A stretch of 63,727 nucleotides of DNA, the filler included, from Sanchytrium tribonematis (taxonomy: Eukaryota), in NCBI GenBank assembly GCA_018985235.1. It is 6 parts of 6 records of this genome, joined end to end, with 100 filler letters (N's around TTAATTAATTAA, not from the genome) between each part and the next. Parts side by side here need not be neighbours in the genome. Positions count along the whole stretch, not along the records: positions 32,744 to 63,727 come from JADGIG010000051.1; 5 more parts are not named here. The stretch is one strand, 5' to 3'. Shown here piece by piece: positions 18,188-58,090 of the stretch; position 1 is the first letter of the stretch, and each line of letters begins with the position of its first letter. The notes under the pieces are model-generated. The model was given only the letters and a program-made list of their open reading frames with translations. It made no database searches and was not told the origin of the DNA. The translations under genes and the position numbers were made by a program.

Positions 18188-18193
18188 ATTTAT

Positions 18194-26809: not shown

Positions 26810-26829
26810 TATATGTGGCTTGGTCTCGT

Positions 26830-27040: not shown

Positions 27041-27102
27041 CTTCTTTTAGCTGCTGGACTGCTGGAGTGGAATTCTTTCCTTTTGTTTCAAAAATTTATT
27101 GT

Positions 27103-27774: not shown

Positions 27775-27861
27775 TTTGTGTGGCTTAATCTTGCGAGTAA
27801 ATTGTTTAAATTAACATAATCAATTCGGAGCCAATCAACCTGCTTTGGCAATCAAATTGTT

Positions 27862-30800
27862 TTAAATTTCAGCTTGTCTATCTTTGCTAATGGTATGTAT
27901 ATCCATTAATTTGATACTTGAAATTAATTCTTTCATTATTGTTTTTAAATTTCCATTGTCAATATCTACAGTAGTGGCAATATTTTGACCAGTGGTATTT
28001 GTCAATGCAACAAATTCAATAAATCTTGTTTTAATGTAAGCAATTTTTAAAATATGGGTAAATTCAATCCCATCATCCTCAGAAACTCTACAAAGGGGAC
28101 CAACCACATCAATTGCAATTACTTTGGAATGAATTGATGTCCATATCAATTGTGATTTTGTGCAATTTGCCGCAGTTTGACAAATGTAGCATTTCTTGAT
28201 AAATTCATTAATATCTAGTTGTAAACCCATACAATAAATGTGGTACTTTAATGAGTTGTAAGAATATATTTTTCGCTCAATTAAGTCAAATGAAAAAAGA
28301 AGTCAAAAAAATGTATCGATTGGGCACAGTAAGTGATGTGGACCCATTGAAGATATTATTCTTGAAAAATTTAAATTTCTAATATTTTTAAATCAATTAT
28401 TAGTTACGATGGAATTTATAAATGGATTAAAAAACATTAATGATGGAACTTTTAAAACGTCAAGAAATTGATATGATGGGATATTAAAAAAATTATCTCG
28501 AACCTAAAGCAGCAACTCAATTAGTTGAAAACGATGATTAATATTTGATCAAATCAGTAGCAAAGCATATTAAAAAAAAATCTCGTACCTAAAGCAGCAA
28601 CACAATTAGTTGAAAACGATGATTAGAAGCAAAGCATATTTATAAAGTTGAAAGCAAATTTTGTCTATGTGCCAGTGGTAAGATTGTATTTGCAAATGAA
28701 ATTGCAATTTAAATAGATGTGGGAACCATAGAAACATTAGCAACCACCAGAGCAAATTGAATGTCAATTTTTTCTGGTTTTAGTGAGAAACTAAATGTTA
28801 AAGTTAGGACCTTCAAAGGTTTATAGCAAGAATTAAAAATTTGATTTTGGAATTTAATGATTGGACCAAATTCGTAAGAAAAACACATATATGCCATTAT
28901 TCGACGTGATCGTTGTACCTCACCTCTAAAGTAAGACTGTTTTGAATATCATCATACTTTCGTTACACGAACTGCTGACCTGCACTACATTTGTTTAACT
29001 CGAAATAAGCTTCATCTCCAAAGAAAAAATTTGTCCCAAAGTGAATTGTTACACACATCTTTGACAAAGAATGGCCAATATACTTACCATATTTAGTTAG
29101 TGCCTTCTCATTGGCATACATTTCCTTCTACATCATGCTGTAATTCATTTCTGACTCATCCAATGCCTTGGAAAATAGTCCAATTAATCGAACATTCTGA
29201 TACAATGTACATCCAATGGCACATGCTGATGCATCCGTATACAAGTCATACTCTCCCATCTCAAAATATTCCAATTTTGTCGATTCTAATAATTCAATTT
29301 GTAGGCATCTTCTGCTGCTTCTGTCCATTCAAATGGCTTCAATGCACATGTCTGACGTATTGGATGGATCACATCTTCAGAATTCAAAATAAATGGGCGT
29401 ACCCAGGACAGCATTCCCAATAATCTTTGACACTCTCTTTTATCAATAGGACTCTTTACTCCTTTTAATTTGATTAAATAACCTAGTTTACACGTATACC
29501 CAGTACAGTCTACTTTAAATCCACAAAATTCAATGCTGGATTGTAATAGTTTGGATTTCTTCCATTTGATATTGAAATTCTTCCATGTTGCAATTTCAAT
29601 GAATTTCTTCACTCTTTGATAAAGTTCTTCAATATTTGTGTCTTTGAGAACCACAGCATCCACAAAAACAGCCTTGTTTTCCATGTCAAATGCATTTGTC
29701 AACTCATATTGGAAAATACCGACACTTTGCTTTAGACCTTGGCCCAAAACAAGCATCAAATATTGACCAAATGGAGTTACTACAGAGGTCAATTTGCCAG
29801 TCTCTGCGCATACTGGAATGTTATAATACCCATCCTTTAAGTCAAATATGGATAAATACCAAAAACCTGCAAATGCTTGTAATTGATCCAGTAACAATGG
29901 TAATAGTTATCCAACATGCACTGTGTATTGGTTCAATCTTCTATAGTCAGTGACACTCCTCCAATCACCATTTCCTTGGGGAACAAATGTCATAATTACC
30001 CCTTCTAACAAAATATTTTGCTTCCATTTCTACTATTTTATCATGAAATATGTCAATATTTGGGGATTTGTGGAATCTCTGTCTCAATTTGGAACTATCT
30101 ACCCGAGGCATAAATTTAATACTCACGGGATTAATATCAGCAGGGCGTGAATAATCATGAACCAACTTCAAGAAATCATTATGGGATCTGTTCTGCACAG
30201 TTTCAATGTTCCATACCAACTTGCAACCCAGCTTTTACTCTAAAATATTCCTCCCAATTATCGGAAGAGACAAATACTCCGAATCCAGCACTAAAAATGG
30301 CTGATCGGATATCAAGACATTGCCAAACTGCACATCCACAGCAGCGTTACCCAGACATGATATAGGTGACCCTCCACCAACCACTTAAGCTGCAGTCTCT
30401 TTCACATCCAATTTTAATAAATCTATCATTTCTCGAGCAAGCGCAGAAGAACCAGCACCAGTGTCAAACAAAACATCACAATCCATTTTATTGAGTTTAA
30501 TCTCGTGGCTGCGTGTGACATTGACCTCATTAATGACACCCAAATTGTTAATCTTCTTTGGTGCTTTTTCCTTTTCTCTCTATCTTTCCTTCTCTCTCTC
30601 TTTCCTTTTACTCCTTGCATTTCTGAAAACTGTGTTGGTGTGTCTTCTCACAATATGGACATCTGCTTGTACTGAATCTTTGTTCACGATATTCACGATT
30701 TGACTTCTCAAATCTCTCAGATGCCATCACAGCGTCTTTCAACTCTCTAAAATCTTTGTAATGGTTCCCAATGACATACTTCTTGGTAGAATAAAGTAGA

Positions 30801-31220
30801 CCATCTACTGTGTGATCTAAAATATCCTTCACACTTAAATTTAGGCTTTTACCGCAAGATTTCATTTTTTAGGTTAACACATCCTCAGAATTCTCTTGCT
30901 TCAAATTGTAAAACTGCTTTAGAGACAGTTTAAAATTGTAATTCTCCTTCAACACAGCCTTTAAAGACTCATAACTCATAACTAATTGGTTTAGCTGCCT
31001 CTGTAATCACTTCTAGTCTCAAATCTGCTGGTAGATACTACAATAAAGCAGTTATTTTTGCTTTTTCTTCTATATCTTCGAACAAATCAAACACACTTGA
31101 TAAACCTGATTCCCAGATTGCAAAATCCATTCTCTCAGGATCAAAAGCAGAATATGGAAATCTTTCCGAAATAGTATTCGGTGGATAATTCATCCCAAAA
31201 TATTCAAAGTTACCAATCAT
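27862..31220 (-). mobile_element. Degenerate Ty3/gypsy LTR retrotransposon (gag-PR-RT-RNH-INT)
   Basis: Fragments in gypsy order: gag knuckle CPYCEKTHQHSFQKC, protease VLFDTGA (~30460), RT DLKDGYY..TPFGQY..FVDA, RNase H LYTDAS, integrase CYICQ..IAIDVVGPL; many stops and frameshifts. Confidence 0.9.
28482..28640. repeat. Imperfect direct repeat, ~58-nt core
   Basis: attaaaaaa..tctcg(a/t)acctaaagcagcaac(t/a)caattagttgaaaacgatgatta occurs at ~28482 and ~28568, each followed by agcaaagcatatt. Confidence 0.8.
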
Positions 31221-32643
31221 TTATTTATCTTCATTCTTCTCGCTTTCCAGCTGCACGTGGATCGTCCAATAGAATCAAGTCATTTGACCAGTCACCAGAT
31301 CCACTCTCTTGTCTCATTCTGAGATGATGGACGTGTTGAATCGCATCATCCAATATCTCAATACCACAGAAACAATTTAATTTAATTGTAAAAACAAATA
31401 ATTAATTAATTTATTATTTTCTTGACATTTTAAAAATATGAAGTTGAACTAACCATCTAATATATTCACTGAAGCCCCTTTGGGAAGTTGAGCTGATAAC
31501 AACTTTATAAATGAAAAATGCTTTGGAACACTCATCTTTGAGAATCAGTATAACACAGTAATGGAAGTAATTGTACCCAAAAGGTTTTGAGACTCGTGGA
31601 ATGGACCTACACAACCATTTACAGAACCAGTAGAGAAATGAAGGTAGTTCTGATGGTTCTGGAATGTGTTCAAAGATGTGATCCAATATCTCCACGGAGA
31701 AGCAGAATATAGTTAATTTTTTCAAATTTGAGTTCCAATTGAATTTACTACGGCTGTTGATATCAATTGATTCTTTAACCAAAAAGGCAACTACAATCAG
31801 ACCCTCCAATTTCGAACTAACTACCGAATTCTAGCACATTGTATATTTGACACGTCGATGTAAAATAATGGAAAAAATTCAGATGAATTAGACTGATAAG
31901 TGTTCCGGAATAACCTGAAGTAGCTCTTATGTAGTCCGAAGAATATGCGAGACACCAGACGAGTTGAATGGTGAGCTCGACAACCACCCAATGGGAGAAG
32001 AGGCAGGGAACTATAAGAAGAACCGTTCACCAGAGAAAAATCATGATCAATGAACAAAATAAACAGTCTAAGCTACTTATCTTTTACGAGGAGTTATAAT
32101 CTCACTCAATAAGCCCTTAAGACAAGCCATGTCGCAGTTTTAAGAGCGGCAAGCAAGGTTGGAGACAGAAAAGGTTACTGTTATGGTCACATTACGAGAT
32201 ATAATACAGACACGCCTGTACTGCCGGGTTTGGTAATACTGATTTCTTTATCCAGCTCTAAGACTTCGAACAAACGAACCAGTTGAACGGAAAGGTGTAT
32301 ATAGACGTAGCCGAGTTGGCTACCGTAGATTTACAACAGTTGATGAAGCGTCAGAACAGAGTTCGCTTTTTTAATAAATTGAGAGTAGGCTTTGATCTGG
32401 TTGGTGATTTGACTTGTCATTGTTTGACTCGAGTCTACAAAATGTGTGTGATTTTAATTATGGTTAAACTCTCGTTGTTATCTTCAACGAGTTTGTACAC
32501 GTTTAAGGAGAAGTTTTTCTTATCAATTTATTTGTAACTGAAGAAGGTTATTGGACAAAATTTATTTGTTTCCAATCTGAGTTATTTATTTGGTATTCTT
32601 TTATTTTTAGTACACGCGTTGTTTCAACAGAAATTTATAAAAG

Positions 32644-39329: not shown

Positions 39330-40556
39330 ATGAATGATCAGATTTATCTACGTTCACTTGGTATCAACAAAATACATGATGTTGTCGATCATTTGATACC
39401 AAATTACAATGTTAGCAAGGAATTGAGACAACATACAGGATGCGTGAACACGGTCCAATTCAACAAATCCGGCGATTTAATGGTTAGTGGATCCGACGAT
39501 AAGTATATATGCTTGTGGGATGGATTTTCTTTCGAGTTAAAAGAGAAAATATTTACAAATCACGGTCACAATATCTTTTCTGCAGTTTTGCTGGAAAATG
39601 GTGAAGGAGTTCTAAGTTGTTGTGCCAAAGGCGATGTTAAGCTATCGAATTTCAGTGGGGATAGCACGCAAATATACAACCATCAAAATGACATGGCATA
39701 CCAAATTGAACTGGTCGATAGAAACACATTTATGAGTTGCGGAGAAAATGGAATTATAATGACATATGATTTGCGAGAAGCCCATTATGGGGCATCGGTT
39801 TTGGTAGATTCTCATAAGGTCTATAATTTTGAAAAAACTGTACACCAGGCGTCTCATAAAAACACGATGACAGGAATTCCAAGTATGTCAATGAAGAACG
39901 ATATTTATTTTGCAGCCGCCTTTAACGACGATTTTGTTAGGACGTTTGATCGTAGATGGGCTGAAATTTCAATTAATGCTTACTGTCCTGATAAATTCAA
40001 TCCTTATAGTGCTACCAAAGATTCGACTATTATTAAAAGTCGGTTACATATGACTAGCAAAATCACAAGCTGCCAATACGATCCCCATGGGAACGGAAGT
40101 TTGGTTATAAGCTATGGCGGAAATTGCGTGTATGTTATAGATCCTGACCAAGATTTCACTGGCGATAATTACTTTAAAACAAACATTTCGGCAAAATGCC
40201 TCTCTGGACATTTGAATAGAAGAACTATGATTAAAGAAACTTCATTTTTAGGTAATAGTTCTCGCTACGTTATGAGTGGAAGTGATGATGGCAGATTATA
40301 CATTTGGGATCTCGATACGGAAAAAATTGTGAATTGCTTTGAAGCTGACGACGATGTTGTGAACTGTACAGTATCACACCCTTTTATACCCTGCATTGTA
40401 CTAAGTGGAATTGACAATAGTATAAAAGTTTGTTTCCCGGAGCACGAATCGTTTGATGAAGCGCAATTTGAGGAATATCTGGGAAATAGAGAAATTTCTG
40501 AAACCATGGCTTTAAGACTCCCACTGGATCGTCTAATGATGAGTACTTCATTTTGA
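39330..40556 (+). CDS. WD40 protein, DCAF6/DCAF8-like
   Basis: HTGCVNTVQFN..MVSGSDD, HGHNIFS, GHLNRRTMIKE, YVMSGSDDG, VVNC..HP, SGID. Confidence 0.88.
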   Translation: MNDQIYLRSLGINKIHDVVDHLIPNYNVSKELRQHTGCVNTVQFNKSGDLMVSGSDDKYICLWDGFSFELKEKIFTNHGHNIFSAVLLENGEGVLSCCAKGDVKLSNFSGDSTQIYNHQNDMAYQIELVDRNTFMSCGENGIIMTYDLREAHYGASVLVDSHKVYNFEKTVHQASHKNTMTGIPSMSMKNDIYFAAAFNDDFVRTFDRRWAEISINAYCPDKFNPYSATKDSTIIKSRLHMTSKITSCQYDPHGNGSLVISYGGNCVYVIDPDQDFTGDNYFKTNISAKCLSGHLNRRTMIKETSFLGNSSRYVMSGSDDGRLYIWDLDTEKIVNCFEADDDVVNCTVSHPFIPCIVLSGIDNSIKVCFPEHESFDEAQFEEYLGNREISETMALRLPLDRLMMSTSF

Positions 40557-40663
40557 CTTAGTTCTGAGACAAGGTGGATTTGATGTTACGGACGAAGATT
40601 ACGAGTCTGATTAGAAAGAAAATAAAGTGAAATTCCAGATAGGATTATTTTTTCTAACAAAAG

Positions 40664-41279
40664 ATGAATATTTTTGCACCAAGAAAGACACCCCAAGAAA
40701 TTCTCAGGCAACACAAGCGATCGATTGACAGAGCAGTCAGGGATATTGACCGTGAGAGATCGAAACTGGAGCAGCAAGAGAAAAAATTGCAAGCTGATAT
40801 AAAAATTATGGCAAAACAAAATATGAATGCATGTAAAATAATGGCAAAAGATATTATAAAAACACGGCATCATATAACTAAACTATACGAGATGAGAACT
40901 CAAATGCAGGCTGTAGGATTAAAGATACAGACTCTCAGTAGTAATGCTCAGATGGCAGAAGCAATGAAAGGAGTTTCTAATACCATGAAAGTAATGAACA
41001 AACGCATGCAACTGCCTCAAATAGCTAAAATCATGCAGCAATTTGAGCAAGAAAGTGAAATTCTTGATATGAAACAAGAGATGATGAACGACAATTTTGA
41101 AGACATGAATGAGGAGGAGGAAGACGAGACAGACGAGCTTGTACAACAGGTTTTAGATGAAATCGGAATAGGAGTTTCCACATCTGTAGCTTTAATTAAT
41201 TTAGGCACCAGTAGCTCCTAACTCGCAGCAAGCTGTAGATTCAGATTTAGAAAAGAGGCTCGAGCAGCTTAGGAAATAA
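40664..41279 (+). CDS. VPS2: ESCRT-III subunit Vps2/CHMP2A; join(40664..41185,41205..41279)
   Basis: Snf7-family core (QQVLDEIGI); splicing restores the C-terminal MIM1 motif DLEKRLEQLRK. Confidence 0.95.
41186..41204 (+). other. 19-nt spliceosomal intron
   Basis: GTAGCTTTAATTAATTTAG, phase 0. Confidence 0.92.
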
Positions 41280-42102: not shown

Positions 42103-43150
42103 ATGATTATAAAACTTGGATCTCAGAAATTTGAGCCTGAATATGTTGAAAACAATGACGATGTTTGGCGAATAACAGACAAACTGACTGTAGAAAAGGG
42201 AGACAAATCCTATGAAGTAAACAGTGTAGACTATGGTGATAAAATTTATTTTGGCAATGATATGAAATTGTACCATAGCAAACCTATTCAATACACAAAA
42301 GTTGATTTGACAGCACTGAAGGAATCTATTGACACGGCAACGGATATTGTAGACAAGAGAAAACTAGCAACTGCTTTGCAAGTGCAATATATTGGTATTC
42401 CAAATCTTGATGCAGCTACTCCATTGGATGATATATATTACAGAGATATGCATGTATTTACTTTATTCAAAAGTGAACTACTAGCTGGAGCTTGTATTGG
42501 AATTGAACAATTAAACAAAAATGAAGACAAAGACAACTTGGAATTGTTTGGTTCGACTTTCAGAATTTGTCACTTTTTTATTCTTAAGCCTTTTCAAAAT
42601 ATGGGGCTTGGGCGGCAACTATACGCTGAAGTCAAAAAATTCGTTAATGAAAACTTTGATAGACTTTGTGTTGAGGATCCAAATGAGTTATTCTGTAACT
42701 TAAGAGATCATTGTGACTTGAGAGAAGTACAGGAAAGCGGTGGCTTGTCCGCTTTACTAAATAGGGCCGATGGGGAGTCATCGAAAAGATCCAAATTGGA
42801 CCCCATCTCATTCGTGGGCAAATTCAATGGAATTCGAAATTATATCTCAAAGTTGCAATCGAAATTCCGATTATCTCCAGTAATTTATACTAACGAAGGA
42901 TCAGTCAGTTAGAGTGTACGAGATGACCATTTTAGATGAGCTTTCTTTCGGAATGGAAAACAAATTTGATTTATTACAAAACTTTGAAGTTATGTCGAAA
43001 TTTATGGAAATGTTGGCTGATCGAATTCAGACTCAAAACCAAACAACAGAGGTATTACTGCCAGTTGAGCAGGACCAAAATCAAAGTTTACAACAGACAA
43101 GTTTGCTAAGAGTGCAAGATTACCTAGATGTATTAAATAAAATGAGATGA
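42103..43150 (+). CDS. HAT1: Histone acetyltransferase Hat1; join(42103..42879,42899..43150)
   Basis: RICHFFILKPFQNMGLGRQLY, VEDPNELF..LRD..DL; the splice gives KFRLSPDQSVRVYEM. Confidence 0.88.
42880..42898 (+). other. 19-nt spliceosomal intron with TACTAAC branch point
   Basis: GTAATTTATACTAACGAAG, phase 0. Confidence 0.92.
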
Positions 43151-45563: not shown

Positions 45564-47474
45564 TTATTTTGGGGCAACATTGTCCACAAAATTCGACCAC
45601 GCAAATGAACCGCTTTTTATAGACGAAATGGATTCGCTTTTACTGTCCAATTTCTTTAGACTATGATTTGATTTCGTCTGACCATAAATTTTGTGGTTTA
45701 ATGCTTTATTTGAGTCACTTGAATGAGATTTGAGGGACTTGGGTTCTGAAGGATTTTTCGCCTTTAATAAATTTAAAAAGGATATATCTAAGTCGCTATT
45801 CCTGCTTGAGGGAGCAGATTTTTGAATTCCAATAGACTCGACTCTTGCATTTAGAGATTGGGTAGATTCGAGCTTTGGGATTGGGTCCAAAGAATGATTT
45901 CTAGTGGACCCAGTTACTCTAGATCGTGATTTTTGTTTATCCTCGGAAGGCGAATCTTCAAAATCATCGTTATACTTCTGAATTATGGAAAAGCTTTTCT
46001 CATGATTCGAATTTGATTTTGACAAAGAAGAGGCGTTTTCAATTTTGGGTTTGGATGATACAATGGCACTCTTGATGGCAGATAAAGAATTTTTGGATTC
46101 AGACTGAGATTTTTTCACATTAGAATTTAGTATGACGCTGCTCGAAGAAGCATATATGTCTACAATTTCATTAGCAAGATTCAAATTATTTTCTTTAGAA
46201 GTTGATGGACTTTTTATGCTACTTAGAGTTGAGCTATTTGAAGTTGATGTTGACTCTCTGATTGATTTGGATTTTGATTTTCTAAATGAGCCGGAAACAT
46301 TTGTAGTGTTGTAGCTCCCATTTTCAACAAATTGACGTGTGGGCGATTCATAAGGTTCGGGGCCATCCAGATATTTTGATTTTTCAATATATTTTTGATA
46401 CAAGGTTTTTTTACTGTCAATCATTTTCGTCTGGGTAGATTTGTGACGAGACTTCATTGGCGGAATTTTTGACTCGCGAACAAGAGGTGTCTCATTTGAG
46501 ACTAAACGATTTAAGCCATTTAGCAAAGTCTCTAAATTTTCGGTTAAATCCCGTAAGGAGTCTTCTCTACCTTTAAGTTGATTCACGAACACTAAGGCTT
46601 TGTGCAACTCCTCTAATTGTAGTTGAAAATCGACTTCGACATTTGAAATACCAAAAGCAGTCATATCCACTTCTTCTGGTTTTAATTCTCTAGGAGGCGC
46701 TGTAACTGGTCGTTCCTTGGTATCAAAGTACATATAGGGTAGCTTCAAATGTAAATTATTTCTTGTGTTATGCCAAGGTGATATTAATTGATCAAACGAT
46801 TTATATTTTTTCCTTAAACTCGTCATTTTCTTAATTTCCTCTAAATTTGATTCGTTTATAAAGTTATTTTTTACATTGATGTGACTACATCCAATATTGT
46901 CTGACAGATAGGTGATGATTATTCTCAAAGAGTGATTTGTCAATCCACAATTTTCAAGGTCCCATTTTTTAACTTCTTTTCTTCCAGACAAATAATTCAA
47001 CATATATTTGAGCCCAATATCCCTGATATCATTTCCATTTAAAGATATGCGAGAAAATGGTTGGTCAGATTTTAGTAATAAATGTACAAGATGCTGAATC
47101 CCTTCGTATCCAATGTGACAGGCAGATAAGTTTAAAACTTGCAATTGGCTCAAATCATTGTATTGCATTAACAAAGAGTTGCCTAATTTTGTATGCGGTA
47201 AAGACAGCAATTGTAAATTCTTCGTTACCACTATTTTTTCTATTTGGTTTAATAGTTTCGAGGTCAATGTGGTCCCACATATTTCCAAGGCAGTGACATG
47301 ATCCATTCGACTGAGCAATTTTTTAATTAAATTATGAACATTTTGTTGAGATTTTTCATTTAATTCAACAGGGTTCAAATAAACGCATATTCCTTCATAT
47401 CGATTCAAATCCTCGGTGATTTTATTAAAATCTTTTTTCTGATTCAAATGTAATGGTATAATCAAGGTTTCCAT
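45564..47474 (-). CDS. RI-like LRR plus coiled-coil protein, CEP78-like
   Basis: LNLSACHIG, ISLNGNDIRDIGL, WDLENCGLT, INVKNNFI, then coiled coil and Ser-rich tail. Confidence 0.6.
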   Translation of the reverse strand: METLIIPLHLNQKKDFNKITEDLNRYEGICVYLNPVELNEKSQQNVHNLIKKLLSRMDHVTALEICGTTLTSKLLNQIEKIVVTKNLQLLSLPHTKLGNSLLMQYNDLSQLQVLNLSACHIGYEGIQHLVHLLLKSDQPFSRISLNGNDIRDIGLKYMLNYLSGRKEVKKWDLENCGLTNHSLRIIITYLSDNIGCSHINVKNNFINESNLEEIKKMTSLRKKYKSFDQLISPWHNTRNNLHLKLPYMYFDTKERPVTAPPRELKPEEVDMTAFGISNVEVDFQLQLEELHKALVFVNQLKGREDSLRDLTENLETLLNGLNRLVSNETPLVRESKIPPMKSRHKSTQTKMIDSKKTLYQKYIEKSKYLDGPEPYESPTRQFVENGSYNTTNVSGSFRKSKSKSIRESTSTSNSSTLSSIKSPSTSKENNLNLANEIVDIYASSSSVILNSNVKKSQSESKNSLSAIKSAIVSSKPKIENASSLSKSNSNHEKSFSIIQKYNDDFEDSPSEDKQKSRSRVTGSTRNHSLDPIPKLESTQSLNARVESIGIQKSAPSSRNSDLDISFLNLLKAKNPSEPKSLKSHSSDSNKALNHKIYGQTKSNHSLKKLDSKSESISSIKSGSFAWSNFVDNVAPK

Positions 47475-47491
47475 AATATTTTGGCCTAATC

Positions 47492-48664
47492 ATGATTTTA
47501 AGGAGTTTAGCTATGGTTCAAATTTACTATCTTACAAATTCCGAGATCAACTACAACGATTTGGCAGTACCCATTGAAAGCTTGAAAGTACTTGACAATC
47601 ACATTTTATTAGCTGAAGCAAATGAAGTTCACCTAGATGGTGAAAATGGACGAGTCAATCATTATATGGATAAAGCAAAGCATTTGATAAATAGCTACAA
47701 AAATTACAAACACGCACTCTGTATTTATTTATTTTGCTGCCAAAATACGGAGCGTAAAAAATGGAAATTAGCATGTATGTGCAACATATCGTACTTATAC
47801 ACAGAACTACAGGATTTTACAGAGGCTAAAAGGGTAGCTAAAAAAGCATATGATATGGAAAAATCGCATTACAAGGCTCTGATACGGCTGTGTTCTATTG
47901 CAGAACGCCAGGGAGATTTGACGGAAATGATAAAAATTTGCGAACTCGGGCTACAAAATCCAGATGAAAATGCTCAATTATATTTTTCCAAAAAGTTGAA
48001 AGAATCCCAAAATGCAGTTCAGAGAGACGAAAAACAAAAGCTACGCATGGGAAAGCTTTTTAATGATGTTTTATTTGATCATCCCTCAATCGACACAATC
48101 GAGGGTTTTACCTTATTATTTTATAAAGACTTGCGTGCAAATGAGAATATTATATTTGAAGAAAGCACACGAACCTTTGAAGTTGCTAAGTCATACAAAA
48201 AAAGTGCATTTGAAAATTGCATTCGAATGAGTTCCACTTTTAGGAAAGTGCAATCTGCACACAGAGAAGACGAAATTCAGGTATACATGGTATACGGAAT
48301 GTTGCTAGAAGACTTTTATAGAAGGGAAATGATTGTGTCAGTCACAGATGACAAATTTGCTTTACCAATACCAAGAAACTTCAGAATTGAACCTAGTTGC
48401 CCAAATATGGATATTCAAGTCTCGGAAATGCTGCTCAAAAATATATTCAAATATTTTTTTAATTTATTTCAATTCCAATATAGAAATGAACAAACTGTTA
48501 CTAATGTGTTAAGGAATTATCGTACTCCATTGATGGCAACGTTATATCAAGATTATGATGACGTAGAGGTTATTCAAAAGGCACTGTACGAACTCGTAAC
48601 CTACAACATGTTGGATATGTACAAATACAAAGAAGTTGTTTATTTCAAAGCAAGAGATTCATAA
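47492..48664 (+). CDS. TPR-containing protein
   Basis: CNISYLY...AKKAYDMEKSHYKALIR TPR pattern. Confidence 0.7.
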   Translation: MILRSLAMVQIYYLTNSEINYNDLAVPIESLKVLDNHILLAEANEVHLDGENGRVNHYMDKAKHLINSYKNYKHALCIYLFCCQNTERKKWKLACMCNISYLYTELQDFTEAKRVAKKAYDMEKSHYKALIRLCSIAERQGDLTEMIKICELGLQNPDENAQLYFSKKLKESQNAVQRDEKQKLRMGKLFNDVLFDHPSIDTIEGFTLLFYKDLRANENIIFEESTRTFEVAKSYKKSAFENCIRMSSTFRKVQSAHREDEIQVYMVYGMLLEDFYRREMIVSVTDDKFALPIPRNFRIEPSCPNMDIQVSEMLLKNIFKYFFNLFQFQYRNEQTVTNVLRNYRTPLMATLYQDYDDVEVIQKALYELVTYNMLDMYKYKEVVYFKARDS

Positions 48665-48688
48665 TAAATTTTGTTACTGAAACATTTT

Positions 48689-50307
48689 ATGAGCAAAGAA
48701 AAACTGATAATATTTGACACAACATTACGAGATGGCGAGCAGAGCCCAGGAGTCACCTTGGATACACAGGAAAAGATTAAAATAGCTAAACAATTAAGTA
48801 TTTTGGGCGTTGATGTTTGCGAGGCTGGATTTCCTGTGGCAAGTGTTGGGGATTTTGAGAGTGTCAAATCCATTGCAACCATAGTGGGAAACATAAATGA
48901 TGGCAGAAAGGAACCTATGATCATATGTGCATTGGCCAGGGCAACAAATAAGGATATCGAAACTGCTGCGAAAGCAATAGAACCAGCAAAAAATAAGCGG
49001 ATTCACACGTTTTTGGCAACTTCCGATCTGCATCTAAAATACAAGCTTAAAATCTCCAGGGAGGAATGCATTACTAAGGCGGTAAATGCAGTCAAATTGG
49101 CAAAGTCTTTTGTCAATGATGTTGAATTTAGCTGCGAAGATGCTGCCAGATCTGACAGGCACTTCTTATGTCAGGTGATACAAGAAGTAATTAAAGCAGG
49201 TGCTACTACCTTGAACATCCCCGACACCGTTGGCTATATGCAGCCAGAACAGTATGGAAGTCTTATCAAATACTTAATCGATAATACGCTTGGTAGTGAA
49301 AATGTGATTTGGAGTAATTTAATTCTTACGTAGGCACACACTGTCATAATGATTTAGGACTAGCGACGGCTAACACCTTGGCTGGAGTCAATAATGGTGC
49401 CAGGCAAGTTGAAGTCACGATTAATGGGATAGGTGAGCGGGCTGGAAACACTTCATTGGAAGAAATCGCCATGACCCTTTATGTTCATGAGAAATCCTCT
49501 CAAGTCTATACCGACATTGTTAAAAATGAGATTTATAAAACAAGTCAATTGGTCAAAAATTTTACAGGAATGGTAATACAGCCAAACAAAGCGATTGTTG
49601 GTAAAAATGCTTTTGCCCACGAATCAGGAATACACCAGGATGGTGTTCTCAAAAATGCAGAGACTTATGAGATTATAAATCCAGAGATAGTTGGAATTCC
49701 TAAAAACAGTATTGTTTTAGGAAAACATTCTGGTAGAAACGCCTTGAAGAGCAGAGTTGCAGAACTGGGGTTTATTTTGAAAGATATTGAACTCGATGAG
49801 ATTTTCAAGACGTTTAAGAAACTTGCGGACTCTAAGAAGAACATTACCGACGATGATCTCATTTCTATACTTACCGGCGAAGAGACGTCAAAACAATTTT
49901 ATGAATTAAAATCGCTGCAAATTGTAGCTGGAACGTCTGCACTGGCCACGGTTTCAGTTGAAATTTTGAAAGAAAATGAACAAGAAGCAATAGCAGATGC
50001 AGCAGTTTCTAGAAACGGTGCATTAAGTGCGATATTTAGCTGTTTAGATCGCATAGTCGCATCTGATAATATAGTAGTGACATTAGATCATTACCAAGTT
50101 ACCAGTGTCACCGAAGGCGGTGACAGTATAGGGCAAGTTAGTGTTAAAGTAAGATCCCAAGTAAACGAAAAATCAGTAGTTATTGGAGGGCATGCGAATG
50201 ATGTGGACGTCTTAATTGCCTCTGCAAAAGCATATCTTAAAGCATTGTCACGGGTCAAATTGGCCAACGGACGTAATGAGACCCGGGATACTTCGAGCGA
50301 AATTTAG
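48689..50307 (+). CDS. leuA: 2-isopropylmalate synthase, bacterial/plant LeuA type; join(48689..49313,49334..50307)
   Basis: [21 protein letters not shown], spliced [32 protein letters not shown], regulatory domain. Confidence 0.95.
49314..49333 (+). other. 20-nt spliceosomal intron
   Basis: GTAATTTAATTCTTACGTAG; TGG A|GC ACA CAC TGT CAT restores WSTHCH. Confidence 0.93.
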
Positions 50308-50343
50308 TAAATTCTATTCATATAATTTGCAACAATAGGAGTA

Positions 50344-50805
50344 ATGTCAACTACATGCAGACGGCGACTCTTGCAAGACTTTAAAAAGATACAAAAAGAA
50401 CCCGTTGTGGGAATAAACGCGACGCCCGACCCAAATAATATATTGATGTGGAATGCATTTATAGTGGGACCGGAAGACACAATTTTTCATCAAGGTATAT
50501 TTAAATTACGTCTGGAATTTGACGAAACTTATCCTCAAAAAGCACCCAAGGTCTCTTTTGTTACTAAAATTTACCATCCGAATGTTTATGACAATGGTGC
50601 GCTGTGTCTCGATATTATACAAACAAGGTGGAGTCCCAGTTACGATGTCCAATCTATTTTGACCAGTGTGCAGTCCCTATTAAACGACCCTAATCCAAAT
50701 AGTCCCGCCAATGCCGAAGCAGCTAGATTATTTCAAGACAACAGACCCGAATACGACCGGAAAGTCAGAGAGTGTGTCGAGAATTCCTGGCTACAGGATG
50801 AATAA
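50344..50805 (+). CDS. RAD6: Ubiquitin-conjugating enzyme Rad6/UBC2
   Basis: [36 protein letters not shown]. Confidence 0.95.
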
Positions 50806-50917
50806 TTTATTTTGAAATAAAATGCCGTACTATTTAGGGTTTACATATTTCGAGCAATTAAGACATGCGTCTTCGCTTTTTCGACCAAAAGTATATCGAT
50901 GACGTCGGGTATCAATC

Positions 50918-51193
50918 ATGTCAAATTTAACTACTACTACTTTGACCACAGATCCTGTCACTTTAACAACGACCACCATGACCCCAACAACTACTAAGTC
51001 TGTGGAGAGTGATACTTTGACCTTTTCAGTTGTCTCGACGATGAAAACGACAGTGATAACAAAAAGTGATGGAGCAACAAGTATCAGTCAAGTGTACGAA
51101 ACATTTACTGTGAGTTACCCGCGACCTATAGCTGTTGCTGGAGCTTCAAAAATGTCAACTTTTATGGTAATCTTGTTGTTTATGTTTGTTTAA
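50918..51193 (+). CDS. Small Thr-rich protein with hydrophobic C-terminus
   Basis: Thr-rich, ends GASKMSTFMVILLFMFV; stop followed by TAAA. Confidence 0.55.
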   Translation: MSNLTTTTLTTDPVTLTTTTMTPTTTKSVESDTLTFSVVSTMKTTVITKSDGATSISQVYETFTVSYPRPIAVAGASKMSTFMVILLFMFV

Positions 51194-51228
51194 TAAAATA
51201 TAGTCTTCAATTTTAGGGGATCTCCTCG

Positions 51229-52590
51229 ATGTCAATTCAAATATACAGCGCTCAACAATACTGTAAATTCGATTCTACTAAACCTATTCAAATTATGGAT
51301 GGGAAAAGAATGACATCGTATCAGCCAGGTTCGGACGTGGTTGACGCGATTTTGGTCAAATCGTTGAAAGCCAAACAACCTTACTATTTGGCCATTTGTA
51401 CGAAGCACGCTATATTGTTATTTAATGGAGAGACTGTCATAAAGCAAATTAAAGAAAACGTAACCAAATTGACTACTTTTGAAAATACTATAGTTGGAAT
51501 TAGTTCTCAAAAATGCGTTCATTGGAATTATGATTTGGATACAACTAACACGTATGAAGTAGACATCGAAGGAGAGATTAACAGCATCTCTTTAGCGAAT
51601 GATCGCCTTATAATAGGGACTTCTAGATTGTCAATATTTTCTTTAAATAGTTTGCAATTATTGGCTTCAACCTCCAAGTCAGACCACAGCATTGATTTTA
51701 TTTCAAATATGGGTGATTACGTATTTGCGGCTTCTTCATCAAGCAACGCAATCAATGTTTACAAGTTAAAAAAAGATAAGCGAAAGAATAAGAAACTCAT
51801 GCTACTGGACACTGTTTTTGTCGATCAAAATATACAGAATATGTCAATATTTAACGGATGGATGACGCTCACGCATGATAGCTCATTTTCTTTAATTGAA
51901 TTAGGAGAGGAATTAATTAAAAAGGGTACCACAATTTTAAATCAAAAAGTAGATGTTGCTTTGTGCGATTTAGACAAAAATGGAAACCTCACTGCGCACC
52001 TATTTATTAAGCCATTTTCAAGCTACTTTTGTTACGACATGAAAGACTTCCCTCGCGAGATTGAGTTGTCCAATGACGAGATGCAGCAAGAACTCGCAGT
52101 GCCTAAAATTGCAATTATGGATCAATTAGAACCTACATTGGGTGATCTGATCCCGGATATTGAACCTCAAAACGAAACTGAGATTTTACTTGAAAGCACA
52201 CAGACCGAATTGACCCCACTTTTGCTTCAAGCTATTAAAGGTCATGATCAAGCATTACTTGAGACATGTCTGCAGTCTGGTAGAAAAACCGCTAAGAAGG
52301 CGCTTAAAAGTCTTAGCCCCCCTGCAGTCACGGAACTCATTCACTTATTAAATGAGCGAATGCAAAAACAAATGACCGAGACTGTTATGGAATGGATTGA
52401 GGATCTTCTTGTATTTCACGGATCTTTGATTCGAAGTGGCCCTGCTATGAAAGATATTTATGCGTTGGAAGCACTTATAAGTGAAAAGTCTCAAAATTAT
52501 CAGCAACTTATGGATGTGTGTTCACAGCTTGAACTGGCTCTAGCTTTAAATGATAACATTACTGCATCTGATGATGAAATGGAAATGTAA
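51229..52590 (+). CDS. UTP5: Utp5/WDR43-like SSU processome protein
   Basis: Beta-propeller-like N-terminus, EPTLGD, Utp12-type domain LLQAIKGHDQALLETCL...WIEDLLVFHG. Confidence 0.75.
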   Translation: MSIQIYSAQQYCKFDSTKPIQIMDGKRMTSYQPGSDVVDAILVKSLKAKQPYYLAICTKHAILLFNGETVIKQIKENVTKLTTFENTIVGISSQKCVHWNYDLDTTNTYEVDIEGEINSISLANDRLIIGTSRLSIFSLNSLQLLASTSKSDHSIDFISNMGDYVFAASSSSNAINVYKLKKDKRKNKKLMLLDTVFVDQNIQNMSIFNGWMTLTHDSSFSLIELGEELIKKGTTILNQKVDVALCDLDKNGNLTAHLFIKPFSSYFCYDMKDFPREIELSNDEMQQELAVPKIAIMDQLEPTLGDLIPDIEPQNETEILLESTQTELTPLLLQAIKGHDQALLETCLQSGRKTAKKALKSLSPPAVTELIHLLNERMQKQMTETVMEWIEDLLVFHGSLIRSGPAMKDIYALEALISEKSQNYQQLMDVCSQLELALALNDNITASDDEMEM

Positions 52591-52601
52591 TAAACTAGTT
52601 T

Positions 52602-52886
52602 TTAATTTATTGCTGACGAATATAACTTTAGACTTTCGTCCATTGATCCCGAGTAATCAAAAACATGAACTTCATCAACTTCAACTTGCAATTGAGAATT
52701 AACTGTACCCTCTACTTGAATAATTCTATCGGTTGGAAAATCTCTGCCCTTTAGAGTAACAATTCCACTACCTTCCTTTAATATAGCATATCCATTTTTG
52801 TTTTCATCGATTGTACCTACCAAAGCCACATTCTTACCGACAAACTCATTCAATCCTGTACTTGCAATTCTTGTCGCTACAACCAT
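52602..52886 (-). CDS. Replication protein A small subunit (RPA3-like OB fold)
   Basis: RIASTGLNEFVGKNVALVG..IIQVEGTV; ATG 52886. Confidence 0.65.
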   Translation of the reverse strand: MVVATRIASTGLNEFVGKNVALVGTIDENKNGYAILKEGSGIVTLKGRDFPTDRIIQVEGTVNSQLQVEVDEVHVFDYSGSMDESLKLYSSAIN

Positions 52887-52972
52887 CAAATAGACTCCTT
52901 GTAACAATTGCAACTTCGAATGAGGTACAATCAAACAACACAGCAAATACCTCGTGACCGGAAAAGAGAAAA

Positions 52973-54624
52973 ATGGTAAGTTTTGAATGTGATGACATAC
53001 CTACATTCTCTGATTGAATGATGAGTACTAGACTCCTGATTCGCACAACTCATGTAGATTGAAATTATATTATGACTTTACGTTCTTCTCAAAAGCAATA
53101 ATTATAATAAATTAAACCTAATTACTTTTCAGAATAATGAACTCCTTGAAATGGTAGAAGACAATTCTACAGCTGCAGAATCTGCAAAGCAGTTGGGAAA
53201 TAAATATTTTAAAGAAAAGCACTATGACAAGGCCATTAATGCATATACGGAAGCCATCAAAATTGAAGAGCGACCAGCTTTTTATTGTAACAGAGCAATG
53301 GCAAATTTTCACTTGGAGTATTATGGCCAAACAATTAGTGACGCAAACTCGGCAATATTACTAGACGACAAATTTTTCAAGGCCTTCTACAGGAGAGGCT
53401 GTGCATACGTACAGTTATTAAAATTTGATGAAGCTATTAAAGATTTTAAATTAGTTTACACAAATACAAAAGATCCAAATGCCTATCAGCACTTGGTATC
53501 ATGCGACAAAATCATTAAGCAAAGAAAATTTGAAGAAGCCATTAGAGTAGAGGAAACAAACCCATTCGACAAAGAGGATTGGAAGCAGATGATCGTTAGC
53601 GATTACTCTGGTCCGTCGGTCGATGCGGAATTTAGTATTGAGCTGGTGTACAAGTGTGCAGAATATATGAAAGAAAAAAGTCTGCATAGAAAACTTCTAA
53701 TGAGGATATTAGTTCAATGCTACGAAGCATTCAGATGTCTAGACTCAATTGTAGATATCAAAGTCCCTAAAAATGGACTCTTGACGATTTGTGGTGATAC
53801 TCACGGGCAATATTTTGATGTTCTGAATATATTCGGGAAATACGGGTGGCCTAGTGAGTCCCACTATTATCTGTTTAATGGAGATTTTGTGGACAGAGGG
53901 TCATGGTCTGTTGAGGTAATTACCTTGCTTTTGCTTATCAAATGCGCTTTACCCAACAGCATCTATTTGACCAGAGGAAACCATGAGACTAATGACATGA
54001 ATAAGGTTTATGGATTTGAAGGTGAAGTGAAAGCAAAATACTCTTCCTCTTTATTTCCATACTTCACAGAAATTTTTAATGCCTTACCTCTAGGTTTTCT
54101 AATTGAGAACAGAATATTTGTTTGTCATGGTGGTTTGTGCAGCGAAACTCCTGATATTGACAGTTTAAGAAAAATCAATAGATTTAAACAACCACAGCAA
54201 GGATTTTTCACTGAACTCTTATGGAGTGATCCTTGTGATGCCGATGGCGTAAATCCAAGTAAAAGAGGTGCCGGAATTAGCTTTGGTTCAGATATAACTA
54301 AATCTTTTTGCGAAAAGAACGCAGTAGAACTTGTCATTCGATCGCACGAAGTGAAGGAAGAAGGTTTTGAGATTGCACACAACGGAAAATGTATAACGAT
54401 TTTCAGCGCACCAAATTATTGCGATCAAATGGTATTTTTAATTGATATAGGGTAACAAAGGAGCGGTAATTCATTTTTCTTTCTCCGAGACGCCAAAGGT
54501 TGAGCCTAAAGCCAACTTGGGTATCGTTGGTGGAATGAATGGGTGGATTGATCAGTTTTTAGCCGTTCCTCATCCTAATGTCAAGCCTATGGCATATGCT
54601 GGTGGATTTGGACAAATGCAATAA
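52973..54624 (+). CDS. PPT1: Ser/Thr protein phosphatase 5; probable join(52973..52975,53133..54431,54451..54624)
   Basis: TPRs plus GDTHGQ, GDFVDRG, RGNHE, SAPNYC; splice restores CDQMGNKGA and VPHPNVKPMAY. The ATG-only first exon is inferred; ATG 53151 is the alternative start. Confidence 0.93.
52976..53132 (+). other. 157-nt snoRNA-hosting intron (predicted)
   Basis: ATG|GTAAGT ... CCTAAT TACTTTTCAG|AAT AAT GAA CTC CTT GAA ATG, in frame with PP5. Confidence 0.6.
52985..53042 (+). ncRNA. Box C/D snoRNA, double guide
   Basis: C GTGATGA 52989, D' CTGA 53010, C' ATGATGA 53018, D CTGA 53036, terminal GAA/TTC stem; guides TACCTACATT and TAGACTC are complementary to conserved LSU rRNA segments. 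Confidence 0.85.
54432..54450 (+). other. 19-nt spliceosomal intron
   Basis: GTATTTTTAATTGATATAG, phase 0. Confidence 0.95.
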
Positions 54625-54646
54625 ATTTATTTTTTGGCTGAGACAA

Positions 54647-55781
54647 ATGGGTATCAAATCCCTAACGAAAGTTTTGACAGAACACGCACCAAATGCGACC
54701 AAACTTAAGCCAATAAAATCCTACTTTAGCAGAAAAGTTGCGATAGACTGCAGCATGTGGATTTATCAATTTTTGGTTGCCGTTCGAACCGGAGGCAATA
54801 ACATGCAAGATAGCGAAGGAAATACAACGAGTCATTTAATCGGATTGTATTATAGGACAATAAGAATGCTGGAAAATGGAATTGAGCCTGTTTTTGTTTT
54901 TGACGGAAAACCACCAGATCTCAAGTCCGTTGAATTAAACAAACGAAAAGCAAATAGAGATAAGGCAGAAAAGGATCTGCAGAAAGCGAAAGATGAAGGT
55001 AACGCAGAAGACGAGGAAAAGTTTAATCGCAGATTGACTAAAGTCACTCCTGAACATAATGCCGAATGTCAAAAGCTGTTGACTTTGATGGGAGTTCCTT
55101 TTATTATTGCACCATGTGAAGCCGAAGCTCAGGCTGCAGAACTTGCAAAAAAGGGGAAAGTTTTTGCTGTAGGTACAGAGGATGCCGATACACTCTGTTT
55201 CGCAACTCCAGTCTTATTAAGAAATCTAAGTGCCGCTGATAACAAAAAACTCGATATTAAAGAAATTACTTTATCCACCATTTTAGAGGATATGAATTTA
55301 ACTCAATCTCAATTTATTGACCTTTGCATTTTGTTGGGATGTGATTATTTAGAGTCGATTAAAGGACTGGGGCCTAAATCGGCTATGAATTTGATAAAAA
55401 AGTATGGAAGTATAGACAAGATCGTAGAGGCTAAAGCTTCTGACAAAAATGGAAAAGGTCTCAAATTTGATATTCCTGAAGTTTGGGATTATCAACAAGC
55501 GAGAGAACTGTTTATCAACCATCCAGTCATACCAGCCGAAGACGTTGATTTTAAATGGATCGACCCTGATGAACAAGGCTTAGTAGATTACCTTGTGACT
55601 GAGAAAAACTTCAGGTAATTTTCTTTAAATTAGCGAGGATCGAATCCGGAATGGTGTAGCAAAAATCCGTAAGACTAGAACAAAAGGAAAGCAAGGTAGA
55701 CTTGATGATTTTTTCAAATTTTCAAGTGCCAAAAGGTCTACAAATGAAAATTCTAACCCTGTCAAAAAAGTTAAAAAATAA
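54647..55781 (+). CDS. FEN1: Flap endonuclease 1; join(54647..55614,55634..55781)
   Basis: MGIKSL, AIDCSM, FDGKPP, EAEAQ, LLGCDY; second exon has FSEDRI and the PIP box QGRLDDFF. Confidence 0.97.
55615..55633 (+). other. 19-nt spliceosomal intron
   Basis: GTAATTTTCTTTAAATTAG, phase 2. Confidence 0.95.
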
Positions 55782-55795
55782 ACTAACTTTGTTTA

Positions 55796-58090
55796 TTACT
55801 CAAGCTTTGATTCGGCTTCAATTCTGTATCTCGTGTATTCACACAAATCGTCTACATATTTAGTCTGCTTGGAGTGAATTTCGCTCAGGCTTTCCACCAA
55901 TTCCCTTTTGCATAACGATATATAATATTTCACACCCTCCATTGCCATTTTATACTCATTAATAATGGGCAAAATGTTTGCTTCTAGTGTTTGTATAAGC
56001 TTTTCAGATGGTGTTGGCGTTTTTTTCTTATCTACTTTTTTAGGTCGCAACGAATTGATATAAGCAAAAAAACTGGCTTCTAATTCATTTTGCAGCAAAA
56101 TGTCTTCAAAATGGTCAAATTTTAATTGACCTATCATTCCACCCTCGAATGCTTTTTGGAGCTCCTCAAAAAAGCTATTTAGACTTAAATTAAAAGCAAA
56201 TGTACAATTGCAATACTTGAAATATAAATTCTTCAAGTCAATTTCAATTTTGCTGTGCCATTTATGAGACAGAAGAGAATCAACATTATCTTGGTTGTCA
56301 TTTCTATAAAAATCTACTTGTTTCCACATTCCAATAAAAACCAAATTAAATTTGTTTTGATAAAATGATTTAAATTCGGAACTAAGTCTCTCGGAAATAT
56401 CATGCTGATTAAATTCGATTTTAAGCAATTCATAGTTTGCCTCTAAATTATATTTCCTTTGAAATTTGGATAATATATTATATTTACAACTCTCAACATA
56501 AGATTTCAGGCCCAAGTAAAATGCCTCTAAATCCTTTGCAAATTCCGCCAAAGAAGAACTTTGCTGAATTATAATTACATTGTAAGCATCATGAAATTCA
56601 TCGATAATTGGTGCGTCTAATTGCTTTTCTAAATTTACCGAAAAGATGGGAGTAGGTTGATGATTTCTACTTTCACATATGGAGTATTTTGAGTCGATAA
56701 GCACATTATTTCGCTTTACTGTTTCCTCAGGAGAATCAGTCTTAGGGATGTGTATTAAAAATTGAAGTGGTACTTCTGTATTCAATGCTTTACATCTAAG
56801 GCAAAACTCCTGGAAGATTTTAGATGCAATGACGCCCAGGGTTTCTTTTTCATTTAAATTACAGTCTATTATATTAAATGGCGCAGTCCAGTCAATTTCT
56901 GATAATTCAAATTCTCTTGCGTTCGAAACTTCTACAAAATAGAAAATTTGACACAAATGATTAAAGGATTCGACAACGTATGGTATGGAATTGAATAATG
57001 AAATTGCTTTTTCATGGTTTTTTAAAAGTTGAAAATTTGGATGACGCTTAAACAAACCGAATTTATCCATTAGAGAATTGACATTATTCCCGGTAATTGA
57101 CTTAAATCTTCTTCTCGTTTCACTTTGAAAAATAACATTTGATTTCATCAAATTATCAATTTGTAGCAAGGACATCTCGATGCACTCAAAAATCATGCAC
57201 TTTAGACTAGAGCCCAAGTTTTTATAAAATATAGATTTCAAGGCATCCGAGGAGTTTGCTTTTGGCAACGAATTATGGAAAAAATCCATAGAAAGTTTCT
57301 CTGCTATTAAATTTTGTCTCTTGGAGAAATCAATCTCTTTATCCATAATGTAATTGGACCATATCCGCTTCTGGTTCTCAGACTCCTTATACTGCTGCGC
57401 TAAAAAAGCTTCAATTGTTGTCTTTTCCTCAAGAATGTGGATCTTATCTTCATCAATAAAAGAACTCTTTATAAAATTATCTATCTGTTGATCTAAAAGC
57501 ATCTTGAAATCCCTAACAATCAAATCTTGCAGTGAATTGATTTGATTCTGTGGGACGAGAGTTTTGGCTTCGATACCTTGAGTTTTTGAATCTGTCCTCT
57601 CCAAAATTGGAGTTCCCTCGTTACTTTCTAATAAAGAAGACTGACTCGCATATTTATCAATAATTTTATCCAGGTTGGTCATAGTGTCGATTTCCTTTTG
57701 AATAGTTTTAACATCGAGATTTTCTCTTGATATTATTTCAGGTAATTTCAGTTTCGTCCCAAATTTTAAAATTTTTTTCACATCATTGCTGAAGACGTGT
57801 TGCTTAAAATTAAAATTTTTTTGATTGAGTCCATCCGATATCTCAAATGTCACTTCGACGTTGCTTATTGAATCCAATAAATTTCTATATTCGATTTCAT
57901 CCTGTTTTAAAATTGCGGCAACCTGTTTGGGAGAAATATAAATTTGGACACCTGCAAGTAATCTGGAGATTTTGCTCCAATTTGCAATTCTTTCATCCAG
58001 AGTAGGTCTAGAGCTAAGATTTAATGAAAATCCTTTATTTTTCAAACAATCTTCAATTTCTAATCCAGAAATTTGAGAAAAGTCCAACAT
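55796..58090 (-). CDS. Large hypothetical protein, possibly a divergent SPEF2/CPC1-like protein (CH-like N-terminus)
   Basis: 764-aa ORF; RIANWSKISRLLAGVQI resembles the CH-domain helix of flagellar proteins. Family call is weak. Confidence 0.5.
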   Translation of the reverse strand: MLDFSQISGLEIEDCLKNKGFSLNLSSRPTLDERIANWSKISRLLAGVQIYISPKQVAAILKQDEIEYRNLLDSISNVEVTFEISDGLNQKNFNFKQHVFSNDVKKILKFGTKLKLPEIISRENLDVKTIQKEIDTMTNLDKIIDKYASQSSLLESNEGTPILERTDSKTQGIEAKTLVPQNQINSLQDLIVRDFKMLLDQQIDNFIKSSFIDEDKIHILEEKTTIEAFLAQQYKESENQKRIWSNYIMDKEIDFSKRQNLIAEKLSMDFFHNSLPKANSSDALKSIFYKNLGSSLKCMIFECIEMSLLQIDNLMKSNVIFQSETRRRFKSITGNNVNSLMDKFGLFKRHPNFQLLKNHEKAISLFNSIPYVVESFNHLCQIFYFVEVSNAREFELSEIDWTAPFNIIDCNLNEKETLGVIASKIFQEFCLRCKALNTEVPLQFLIHIPKTDSPEETVKRNNVLIDSKYSICESRNHQPTPIFSVNLEKQLDAPIIDEFHDAYNVIIIQQSSSLAEFAKDLEAFYLGLKSYVESCKYNILSKFQRKYNLEANYELLKIEFNQHDISERLSSEFKSFYQNKFNLVFIGMWKQVDFYRNDNQDNVDSLLSHKWHSKIEIDLKNLYFKYCNCTFAFNLSLNSFFEELQKAFEGGMIGQLKFDHFEDILLQNELEASFFAYINSLRPKKVDKKKTPTPSEKLIQTLEANILPIINEYKMAMEGVKYYISLCKRELVESLSEIHSKQTKYVDDLCEYTRYRIEAESKLE

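Follow-up and report, generated by a model that had tools for sequence, protein, structure and literature searches.

Introduction

Of the systems described so far, those closest to the introns analyzed here are found in two heterotrichs and in one fungus. The introns of Stentor and Blepharisma are 15-16 nt long (PMC9505925, PMC13685798), the branch-point A of Stentor occupies position 10 of the 15-nt introns and position 11 of the 16-nt ones, and neither Slu7 nor Prp18 was detected in Stentor (PMC9505925). In Yarrowia lipolytica, the TACTAAC is followed by 2 nt and then by the AG, so that -6 is the position of the branch A (Irimia and Roy 2008, PMC2483917); the same survey gives WCTRAYN as the branch consensus of intron-poor eukaryotes. 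Very short introns are likewise reported from chlorarachniophyte nucleomorphs (18-21 nt) and Mikrocytos (16-17 nt) (PMC10245619), and from myxobolids and dicyemids, with medians of 22-27 nt (22 in the myxobolids; PMC13644364). An A at -6 that is fused to the AG was thus already known from Stentor, Blepharisma, and Yarrowia.

The sanchytrids are fungi that parasitize algae, and Amoeboradix gromovi belongs to the same phylum, the Sanchytriomycota. No report of sanchytrid introns was encountered in the open-access literature searched; in the article texts of PMC8371127 and PMC10459994 the word "intron" occurs only in the title of a reference. Here, we analyze a window of 63,727 nt from Sanchytrium tribonematis (assembly GCA_018985235.1; six parts joined end to end), a gene-dense eukaryotic sequence of 33-37% GC that uses the standard code and contains 48 ORFs of at least 150 aa. 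A preliminary description of this window had proposed ten tiny introns with a Stentor-like branch point locked at -6, and did not mention the fungal precedent of Yarrowia. Judged from its sequence, we put the probability at roughly 0.78 that such pieces are U2-type spliceosomal introns near their working minimum, with the branch at -6 and the first AG as acceptor.

Results

Eleven Probable Introns and the Genes That Carry Them

The HAT1-like acetyltransferase gene (plus strand) can serve as an example. Its exon 1 (42103-42879) matches the GNAT profile (E = 2e-4) and a chytrid HAT1 (E = 1.9e-4), its exon 2 (42899-43150) has 83 codons, and between them lies a phase 0 intron of 19 nt (42880-42898) that ends in AAG. 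Exon 1 matches its counterparts in four close relatives at 56-60%, and in all four the homology stops at LSP, followed by V (GTN). The read-through tail of the A. gromovi record can be decoded as an intron of 20 nt and, behind it, the beginning of the window's exon 2 (score 48, against -9 for the next decoding), which identifies the acceptor as the AAG at 42898 and not the CAG located 6 nt downstream, so that the latter is bypassed.

Frame is restored to the exact base in this gene, in FEN1, in glycogen synthase, and in 2-isopropylmalate synthase (LeuA), and on the donor side in protein phosphatase 5 (PP5). Excision of the 19-nt FEN1 intron (55615-55633, plus strand) restores the conserved C-terminal part of the protein. 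The 19-nt glycogen synthase intron (17705-17723, plus strand; acceptor TAG) separates exons that meet at Pfam position 486 and abut without a gap, collinear with solved synthase structures; the CAGs that lie 3 and 6 nt past the TAG are bypassed, and introns of 22 or 25 nt ending there would remove residues. The LeuA intron (49314-49333, plus strand) is the only one of 20 nt; its exons join at residues 208/209 of 3rmj, and the additional base sits 5' of the A, which is still at -6. The best structure matches of this gene (48689-50307, plus strand) are short LeuA-type enzymes, bacterial and plant. In PP5 (19-nt intron, 54432-54450, plus strand) homology stops at the donor and exon 2 matches the PP5 C-terminus. 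Between the junction and the C-terminal motif, this exon (54451-54621, plus strand) exceeds the solved PP5 chains by about 15 residues, and no convincing second intron was found within it.

The remaining junctions, all of 19-nt introns, are placed by the joining of ORFs and by the motif rather than by base-exact homology. In USP7 (9808-9826, plus strand), USP7 domains lie on either side; a PDB search with the junction gave no match, and homology does not fix it to the base. In the Vps2/CHMP2 gene of the Snf7 family (41186-41204, plus strand), a PDB search with exon 2 was also without a match, and we take this exon to resemble the CHMP2 C-terminus. The intron of a WD40 gene (40543-40561, plus strand; exon 2 of 17 codons), which the preliminary description had not listed, has T-8 and A-6, ends in TGACTTAG, and was retrieved by a motif-blind scan (see below) with a held-out profile score of 10.6. 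The RIC1 intron (62291-62309, minus strand) has a GTT donor; the RIC1 profile slightly favors the proposed junction (101.1 bits versus 100.1 unspliced), and the related record P0129 breaks at the matching site. Two genes are without a known family, Atlas searches with them having yielded no usable one; their introns are at 18483-18501 (minus strand) and 14908-14926 (plus strand). The latter is the weakest of the eleven and may not be an intron: the ORF upstream has no start and the ORF downstream has its own ATG. The upstream ORF (14348-14907, plus strand) comprises about 160 codons with coding-like usage and has no in-frame ATG before its last 11 codons; the X1 contigs show no indel over it. 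The X1 contig that crosses 14908-14926 has four second alleles, all outside the intron, and over 13866-19263 and 45810-57717 second alleles are clustered at about one-third of the depth.

The window also contains a long, LINE-like RT-RNase H ORF (3487-7201, minus strand) and, at 27862-31830 (minus strand), RT fragments belonging to a broken element of the LTR type. A stretch at 5694-5712 has the motif and was rejected as an intron because it is antisense within a retroelement. Three tandem pairs of paralogues, encoding uncharacterized proteins (224-2030), subtilases (20029-22607), and small membrane-anchored proteins (26167-27810), all on the minus strand, are free of any called tiny intron.

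Alternatively, the pieces could stem from indels in the assembly, from the decay of the genes, or from ribosomal frameshifting at sites that resemble a 3n+1 insert: 19 nt amounts to six codons plus a shift of one base, and the case for introns is built on DNA and homology. Yet seven of the sites (beginning at 41186, 42880, 54432, 55615, 14908, 17705, and 18501) are spanned gap-free and without an indel by X1 DNA contigs, a run that is possibly the source of the window itself and hence not independent; matching breaks occur in up to four other species; and a frameshift would add six residues inside invariant motifs, which are gap-free once the piece is spliced out. We regard this explanation as highly improbable.

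As to the class of intron, removal of a GT..AG piece restores a conserved frame, and the branch motif is complementary to the GUAGUA of U2, as expected of the U2 type. U12-type introns have an RTATCCTT donor and a TCCTTAAC branch, and that donor matches none of the eleven. The HAC1-type intron of fungi is also about 20 nt long, but has non-GT-AG ends in twin hairpins and occurs in one bZIP gene; Ire1-dependent splicing of this kind does not agree with GT..AG ends that recur in eleven genes, which are unrelated and include no bZIP. The introns fall into the class with a fixed branch-to-AG distance (the Yarrowia, Trichomonas, Giardia, and Stentor type), the A being at -6 in 11/11 with no pyrimidine tract after it.

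Sequence Signals of the Introns

All ten introns of the preliminary description are indeed present at ORF breaks, nine of 19 nt and one of 20 nt, and each has the T at -8 and the A at -6 that had been claimed. The worn donor, reduced to GT(A), was equally borne out (A at +3 in 9/10, G at +5 in 0/10), and so was the lack of room for a pyrimidine tract between the branch and the AG: only three bases (-5 to -3) are available in all 11 introns. Among the other GT..AG 19/20-mers of the window, a decoy set that includes the eleventh intron at 40543-40561, both T-8 and A-6 occur in 47 of 610 (Fisher p = 2e-11), and in 9 of 72 when the decoys are AT-rich (Fisher p = 4e-8). Given the introns' own base composition, the joint probability of the two bases is 3e-8, or 5e-6 for any pair of positions; because the introns are U-rich, T-8 taken alone is modest (p = 0.005).

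As a check against cherry-picking, ORF-joining pieces of 14-30 nt were collected by a scan that was blind to the 3' motif. Of its 48 rows, eight were of 19 nt and all eight had T-8/A-6; it retrieved 8/10 of the introns proposed earlier plus the unlisted one at 40543-40561. A profile trained on the ten introns places the eleven at the top of 4,449 GT..AG stretches of 16-30 nt, and in leave-one-out scoring 8/10 of the training introns reach at least 5. When the same profile was used to search for introns of 3n length, this score was attained by 1/287 18-mers and 0/317 21-mers, compared with 11/322 19-mers; of the 75 rows of 17-24 nt that have T-8/A-6, 12 are in-frame and stop-free, and 3n introns may be among them. 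The earlier remark that no length is a multiple of 3 is accurate, and it follows from the fact that 10/11 introns share a single length.

The consensus of the eleven, the whole set from 64 kb, reads GT-A-n-T-T, a U-rich body, and Y-T-n-A-Y-n-T-AG. A pyrimidine is found at -9 in every intron and at -5 in 10/11, and T makes up 52/81 of the bases between +4 and -9. Position +5 is T in 10/11 and never G, for which an altered ACAGA box of U6 could account; at -3, ten introns have T and one has A, and C does not occur.

The Likely Branch Point

In 10/11 introns, no register scores higher against the canonical branch motif than -6. Pairing of the U2 GUAGUA with Y-T-n-A-Y at -9 to -5, scored against the canonical motif, from which the organism's own U2 may differ, amounts to 4-6 of 6 positions including wobble in 10/11 introns and to 3 in FEN1. 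Searches of the window for Rfam families and for tRNAs gave no match, and no snRNA was found within it. The HAT1-like intron does contain the full TACTAAC that had been described (42888-42894, plus strand), with 6/6 Watson-Crick matches in its best register and a putative branch A at 42893, that is, at -6. An A is also present at -7 in 6/11 introns and, in FEN1, an A at -5 pairs better than that at -6 (4 versus 3), so that branching could be displaced by one base in certain introns.

These additional As lend themselves to another reading, according to which the introns are real and the branch is not fixed: the T-n-A would be an acceptor signal read by a U2AF-type factor, comparable to the TTTCAG of C. 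elegans, and any nearby A would branch. Most introns have further As at -7, -10, or -12, other registers score as well as -6 in LeuA and PP5 and better in FEN1, and the A. gromovi annotation includes both U2AF35 and U2AF65. Against this, the A at -6 is the sole A between -12 and -3 in the glycogen synthase intron, the complete TACTAAC of the HAT1-like intron sits in exactly the -6 register, and the T and the A are spaced as in the universal branch motif. A floating branch is therefore quite unlikely, and T-8/A-6 likely represents an ordinary U2 branch motif that has been pressed onto the AG. The motif's fit to that register agrees with the branch at -6 proposed earlier, which is most likely.

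Corresponding Probable Introns in Relatives

The FEN1 of the window is 71% identical to A. gromovi P0004, 72-73% identical to two further proteins, and at most 59% identical to any other of the matches listed. In a tree of 23 rows picked from 120 matches, which shows the clade and not its placement, these four proteins form one long-branched clade with a support of 100/100. The relatives' records break at the window's sites in 2/3 cases for FEN1, 4/4 for the HAT1-like gene, and 1/1 cluster for RIC1, and three of the read-through records decode as 20-nt introns. For FEN1, P0004 and P0002 each have a unique 20-nt decoding at the same site (scores of 57 versus 3 and 91 versus 20) that forces an A at both -7 and -6; P0003 is uninterrupted, either because the intron is absent or because the record is spliced. 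Overall, the A at -6 is forced in 2/3 of the decoded introns and allowed in the third.

The RIC1 relative P0129 is different. If its donor is common with that of the window, an intron of 15-22 nt is impossible; a length of 23 nt is compatible and forces both T-8 and A-6, 27-28 nt or longer may also apply, and 14 nt is implausible. With this intron outside the 19-20-nt range, the clade would have no single fixed length; lengths are 19-20 nt throughout the 64-kb window, and one relative has at least one longer intron. Several lengths fit the short read-through tails of P0123 (19/20 or 15), P0124 (18, 22, or 23), and P0125 (19/20), with longer ones possible. If the stop of the I/L-I-stop tails of P0123, P0124, and P0129 is the acceptor TAG, these tails would fit introns of 15, 18, and 23 nt, in which T-8/A-6 is forced; they are compatible with other lengths as well.

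The public protein records of the window's FEN1, HAT1-like, PP5, LeuA, WD40, and USP7 genes are all unspliced. The published sanchytrid proteomes were obtained with TransDecoder on contigs (PMC8371127); genes called as plain ORFs in this manner yield records that run into the introns, and intron-bearing genes are consequently truncated.

No sanchytrid DNA was found with a HAT1-like alignment in JGI metagenomes, GTDB, and IMG/VR, and a scan with a FEN1 alignment retrieved 80 loci, none above 56% identity and none from a sanchytrid. An intron at the FEN1 site was seen in none of the 71 junctions located (62 continuous by pattern, 7 by eye, and 2 that stop a few codons later; 9 were not located). 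These loci are biased to transcripts and intron-free copies, and this result is a weak hint from sequence comparison that the position is not widely common to other lineages.

Length, Acceptor Choice, and Proposed Mechanism

The chosen AG is the first one past the -6 A in 11/11 introns, and a ruler is consequently indistinguishable from the choice of the first AG at minimal distance. The preliminary description had favored a ruler defined by a lariat loop of about 14 nt. Its 3' half stands, the tail being fixed at 5 nt; the loop, in contrast, is 14, 15, or perhaps 18 nt. Position +14, the branch base expected from counting, is T both in the window's 20-nt intron and in the A. gromovi 20-nt HAT1-like intron, so that the extra length enters the loop and the anchor is the 3' end rather than a count from the donor.

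A strict version of this idea would have a remodelled spliceosome locate the branch A by counting about 14 nt from the 5' G, locate the AG by counting 5 nt more, and largely ignore sequence. The exact 19-nt length of 10/11 introns and a donor whose information is merely GT(A) speak for such a double measurement. The T at +14 in two introns speaks against it, as do the 20-nt introns of relatives and a RIC1 intron that would need 23 nt or more, unless it had an implausible 14; furthermore, sequence counts too (T-8, Y-9, and Y-5). We judge it unlikely.

Under the preferred reading, that of U2-type introns near their working minimum, U2 would pair with the short Y-U-n-A-Y motif and bulge the A at -6, which would form a lariat with a loop of 14-15 nt and a tail of 5 nt. 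The first AG, five bases past the branch, would be taken as acceptor and would dock without Slu7 and Prp18, and recognition would occur across the intron by means of the bare GT(A), the U-rich body, and the branch motif. A U-tract upstream of the branch may play a role in recognition, since the body is U-rich and U2AF65 is annotated in A. gromovi. The narrow length would most likely result from a deletion pressure that steric limits brought to a halt, and not from a protein devoted to measuring; a model of erosion to a floor accounts for narrow lengths without any measuring factor (PMC10245619).

Position within Genes

The final 30% of the coding sequence holds nine of the 11 introns (KS p = 0.003). 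This excess has a binomial p of 6e-4 for a cut-off that was picked post hoc, and in three genes the start is uncertain. No strong 5' candidates emerged from a position-blind scan with the profile, which weak ones would escape. Intron-poor genomes are usually 5'-biased. A 3' bias, if it holds, contradicts the reverse-transcription model of intron loss.

Splicing Factors

The A. gromovi eggNOG annotation table, searched with identifiers that we take to denote the factors concerned, lists 14 of the 18 splicing factors sought: Prp8, SF3B1, SF3a60, SF3a66, BBP, U2AF35, U2AF65, U1-70K, Prp16, Prp17, Isy1, Cwc22, Cwc25, and DBR1. Slu7, Prp18, U1C, and K12850 are missing from this table, which covers about half of the proteins and derives from genes called without introns. 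In yeast, one study describes Slu7 and Prp18 as dispensable when the distance from branch to acceptor is 7 nt (PMC3683925); C. merolae is also without both, despite long branch-to-acceptor distances (PMC10158995). A tie between the loss of Slu7/Prp18 and the short tail is a lead.

Discussion

The comparison with Stentor made in the preliminary description is apt in its geometry, the conserved A being at -6 there as here (PMC9505925). The likeness includes a near-fixed length, a GTA donor, an AU-rich body, a 5-nt tail, and the presence of a tiny intron in about one-fifth of the genes; Slu7 and Prp18 are undetected in Stentor and unannotated in A. gromovi. The differences are that the window's introns are 19-20 nt long with a loop of 14-15 nt, whereas the heterotrich loop is 10-11 nt, that their Y-T-n-A-Y motif is clearer, that the lineage is unrelated, and that they lean toward the 3' end of genes whereas those of Stentor lean toward the 5' end.

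Yarrowia resembles the window in being fungal and in lacking a 3' pyrimidine tract, and its layout is identical to that of the HAT1-like intron; but its introns, at a median of 204 nt, are long and have a strong branch consensus, while those of the window are tiny, with a bare donor and a weak consensus (full TACTAAC in 1/11). Encephalitozoon cuniculi is another reduced parasite of fungal lineage, with introns of about 25 nt and a TAAYTT near their 3' end (PMC6349667, PMC2483917); its introns are longer than those of the window, number a few dozen per genome, and have strong GTAAGT donors, and the first set described was strongly 5'-biased. Nucleomorphs, Mikrocytos, myxobolids, and dicyemids share with the window a narrow range of lengths, which those accounts put down to erosion to a functional floor. 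The myxobolid donor is likewise reduced to GTa, but there the conserved As track the 5' end as length grows, whereas the A of the window tracks the 3' end.

What is new here is the sanchytrid lineage, the length of 19-20 nt, the 3' bias, and the absence of annotated Slu7 and Prp18 in A. gromovi. The sanchytrid introns are probably the shortest known in fungi. A more ambitious proposal, which we offer tentatively and consider somewhat doubtful, is that minimal introns arose independently in the sanchytrids, with a modal length (19 nt) below any other in fungi and animals, that the acceptor is set at a fixed 5 nt from the branch owing to the loss of Slu7 and Prp18, a solution also adopted by Stentor, and that introns are kept near the 3' end of genes, in contrast to other intron-poor genomes. 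Scaled from 11 introns per 63.7 kb to 11 Mb, a rough figure that assumes a typical window, there would be about 1,900 introns per genome.

With the sanchytrids, one more phylum of fungi would join the small number of lineages whose spliceosomal introns are at the lower limit of size. With lengths of 19, 20, and perhaps 23 nt and a seemingly fixed tail, the clade offers a natural test of whether such introns are measured or eroded, and of whether short tails permit the loss of Slu7 and Prp18. If the reading of 3'-retained introns is true, many published sanchytrid proteins lack their C-termini, and such truncated records affect the counts of gene losses and orphan genes in this phylum.
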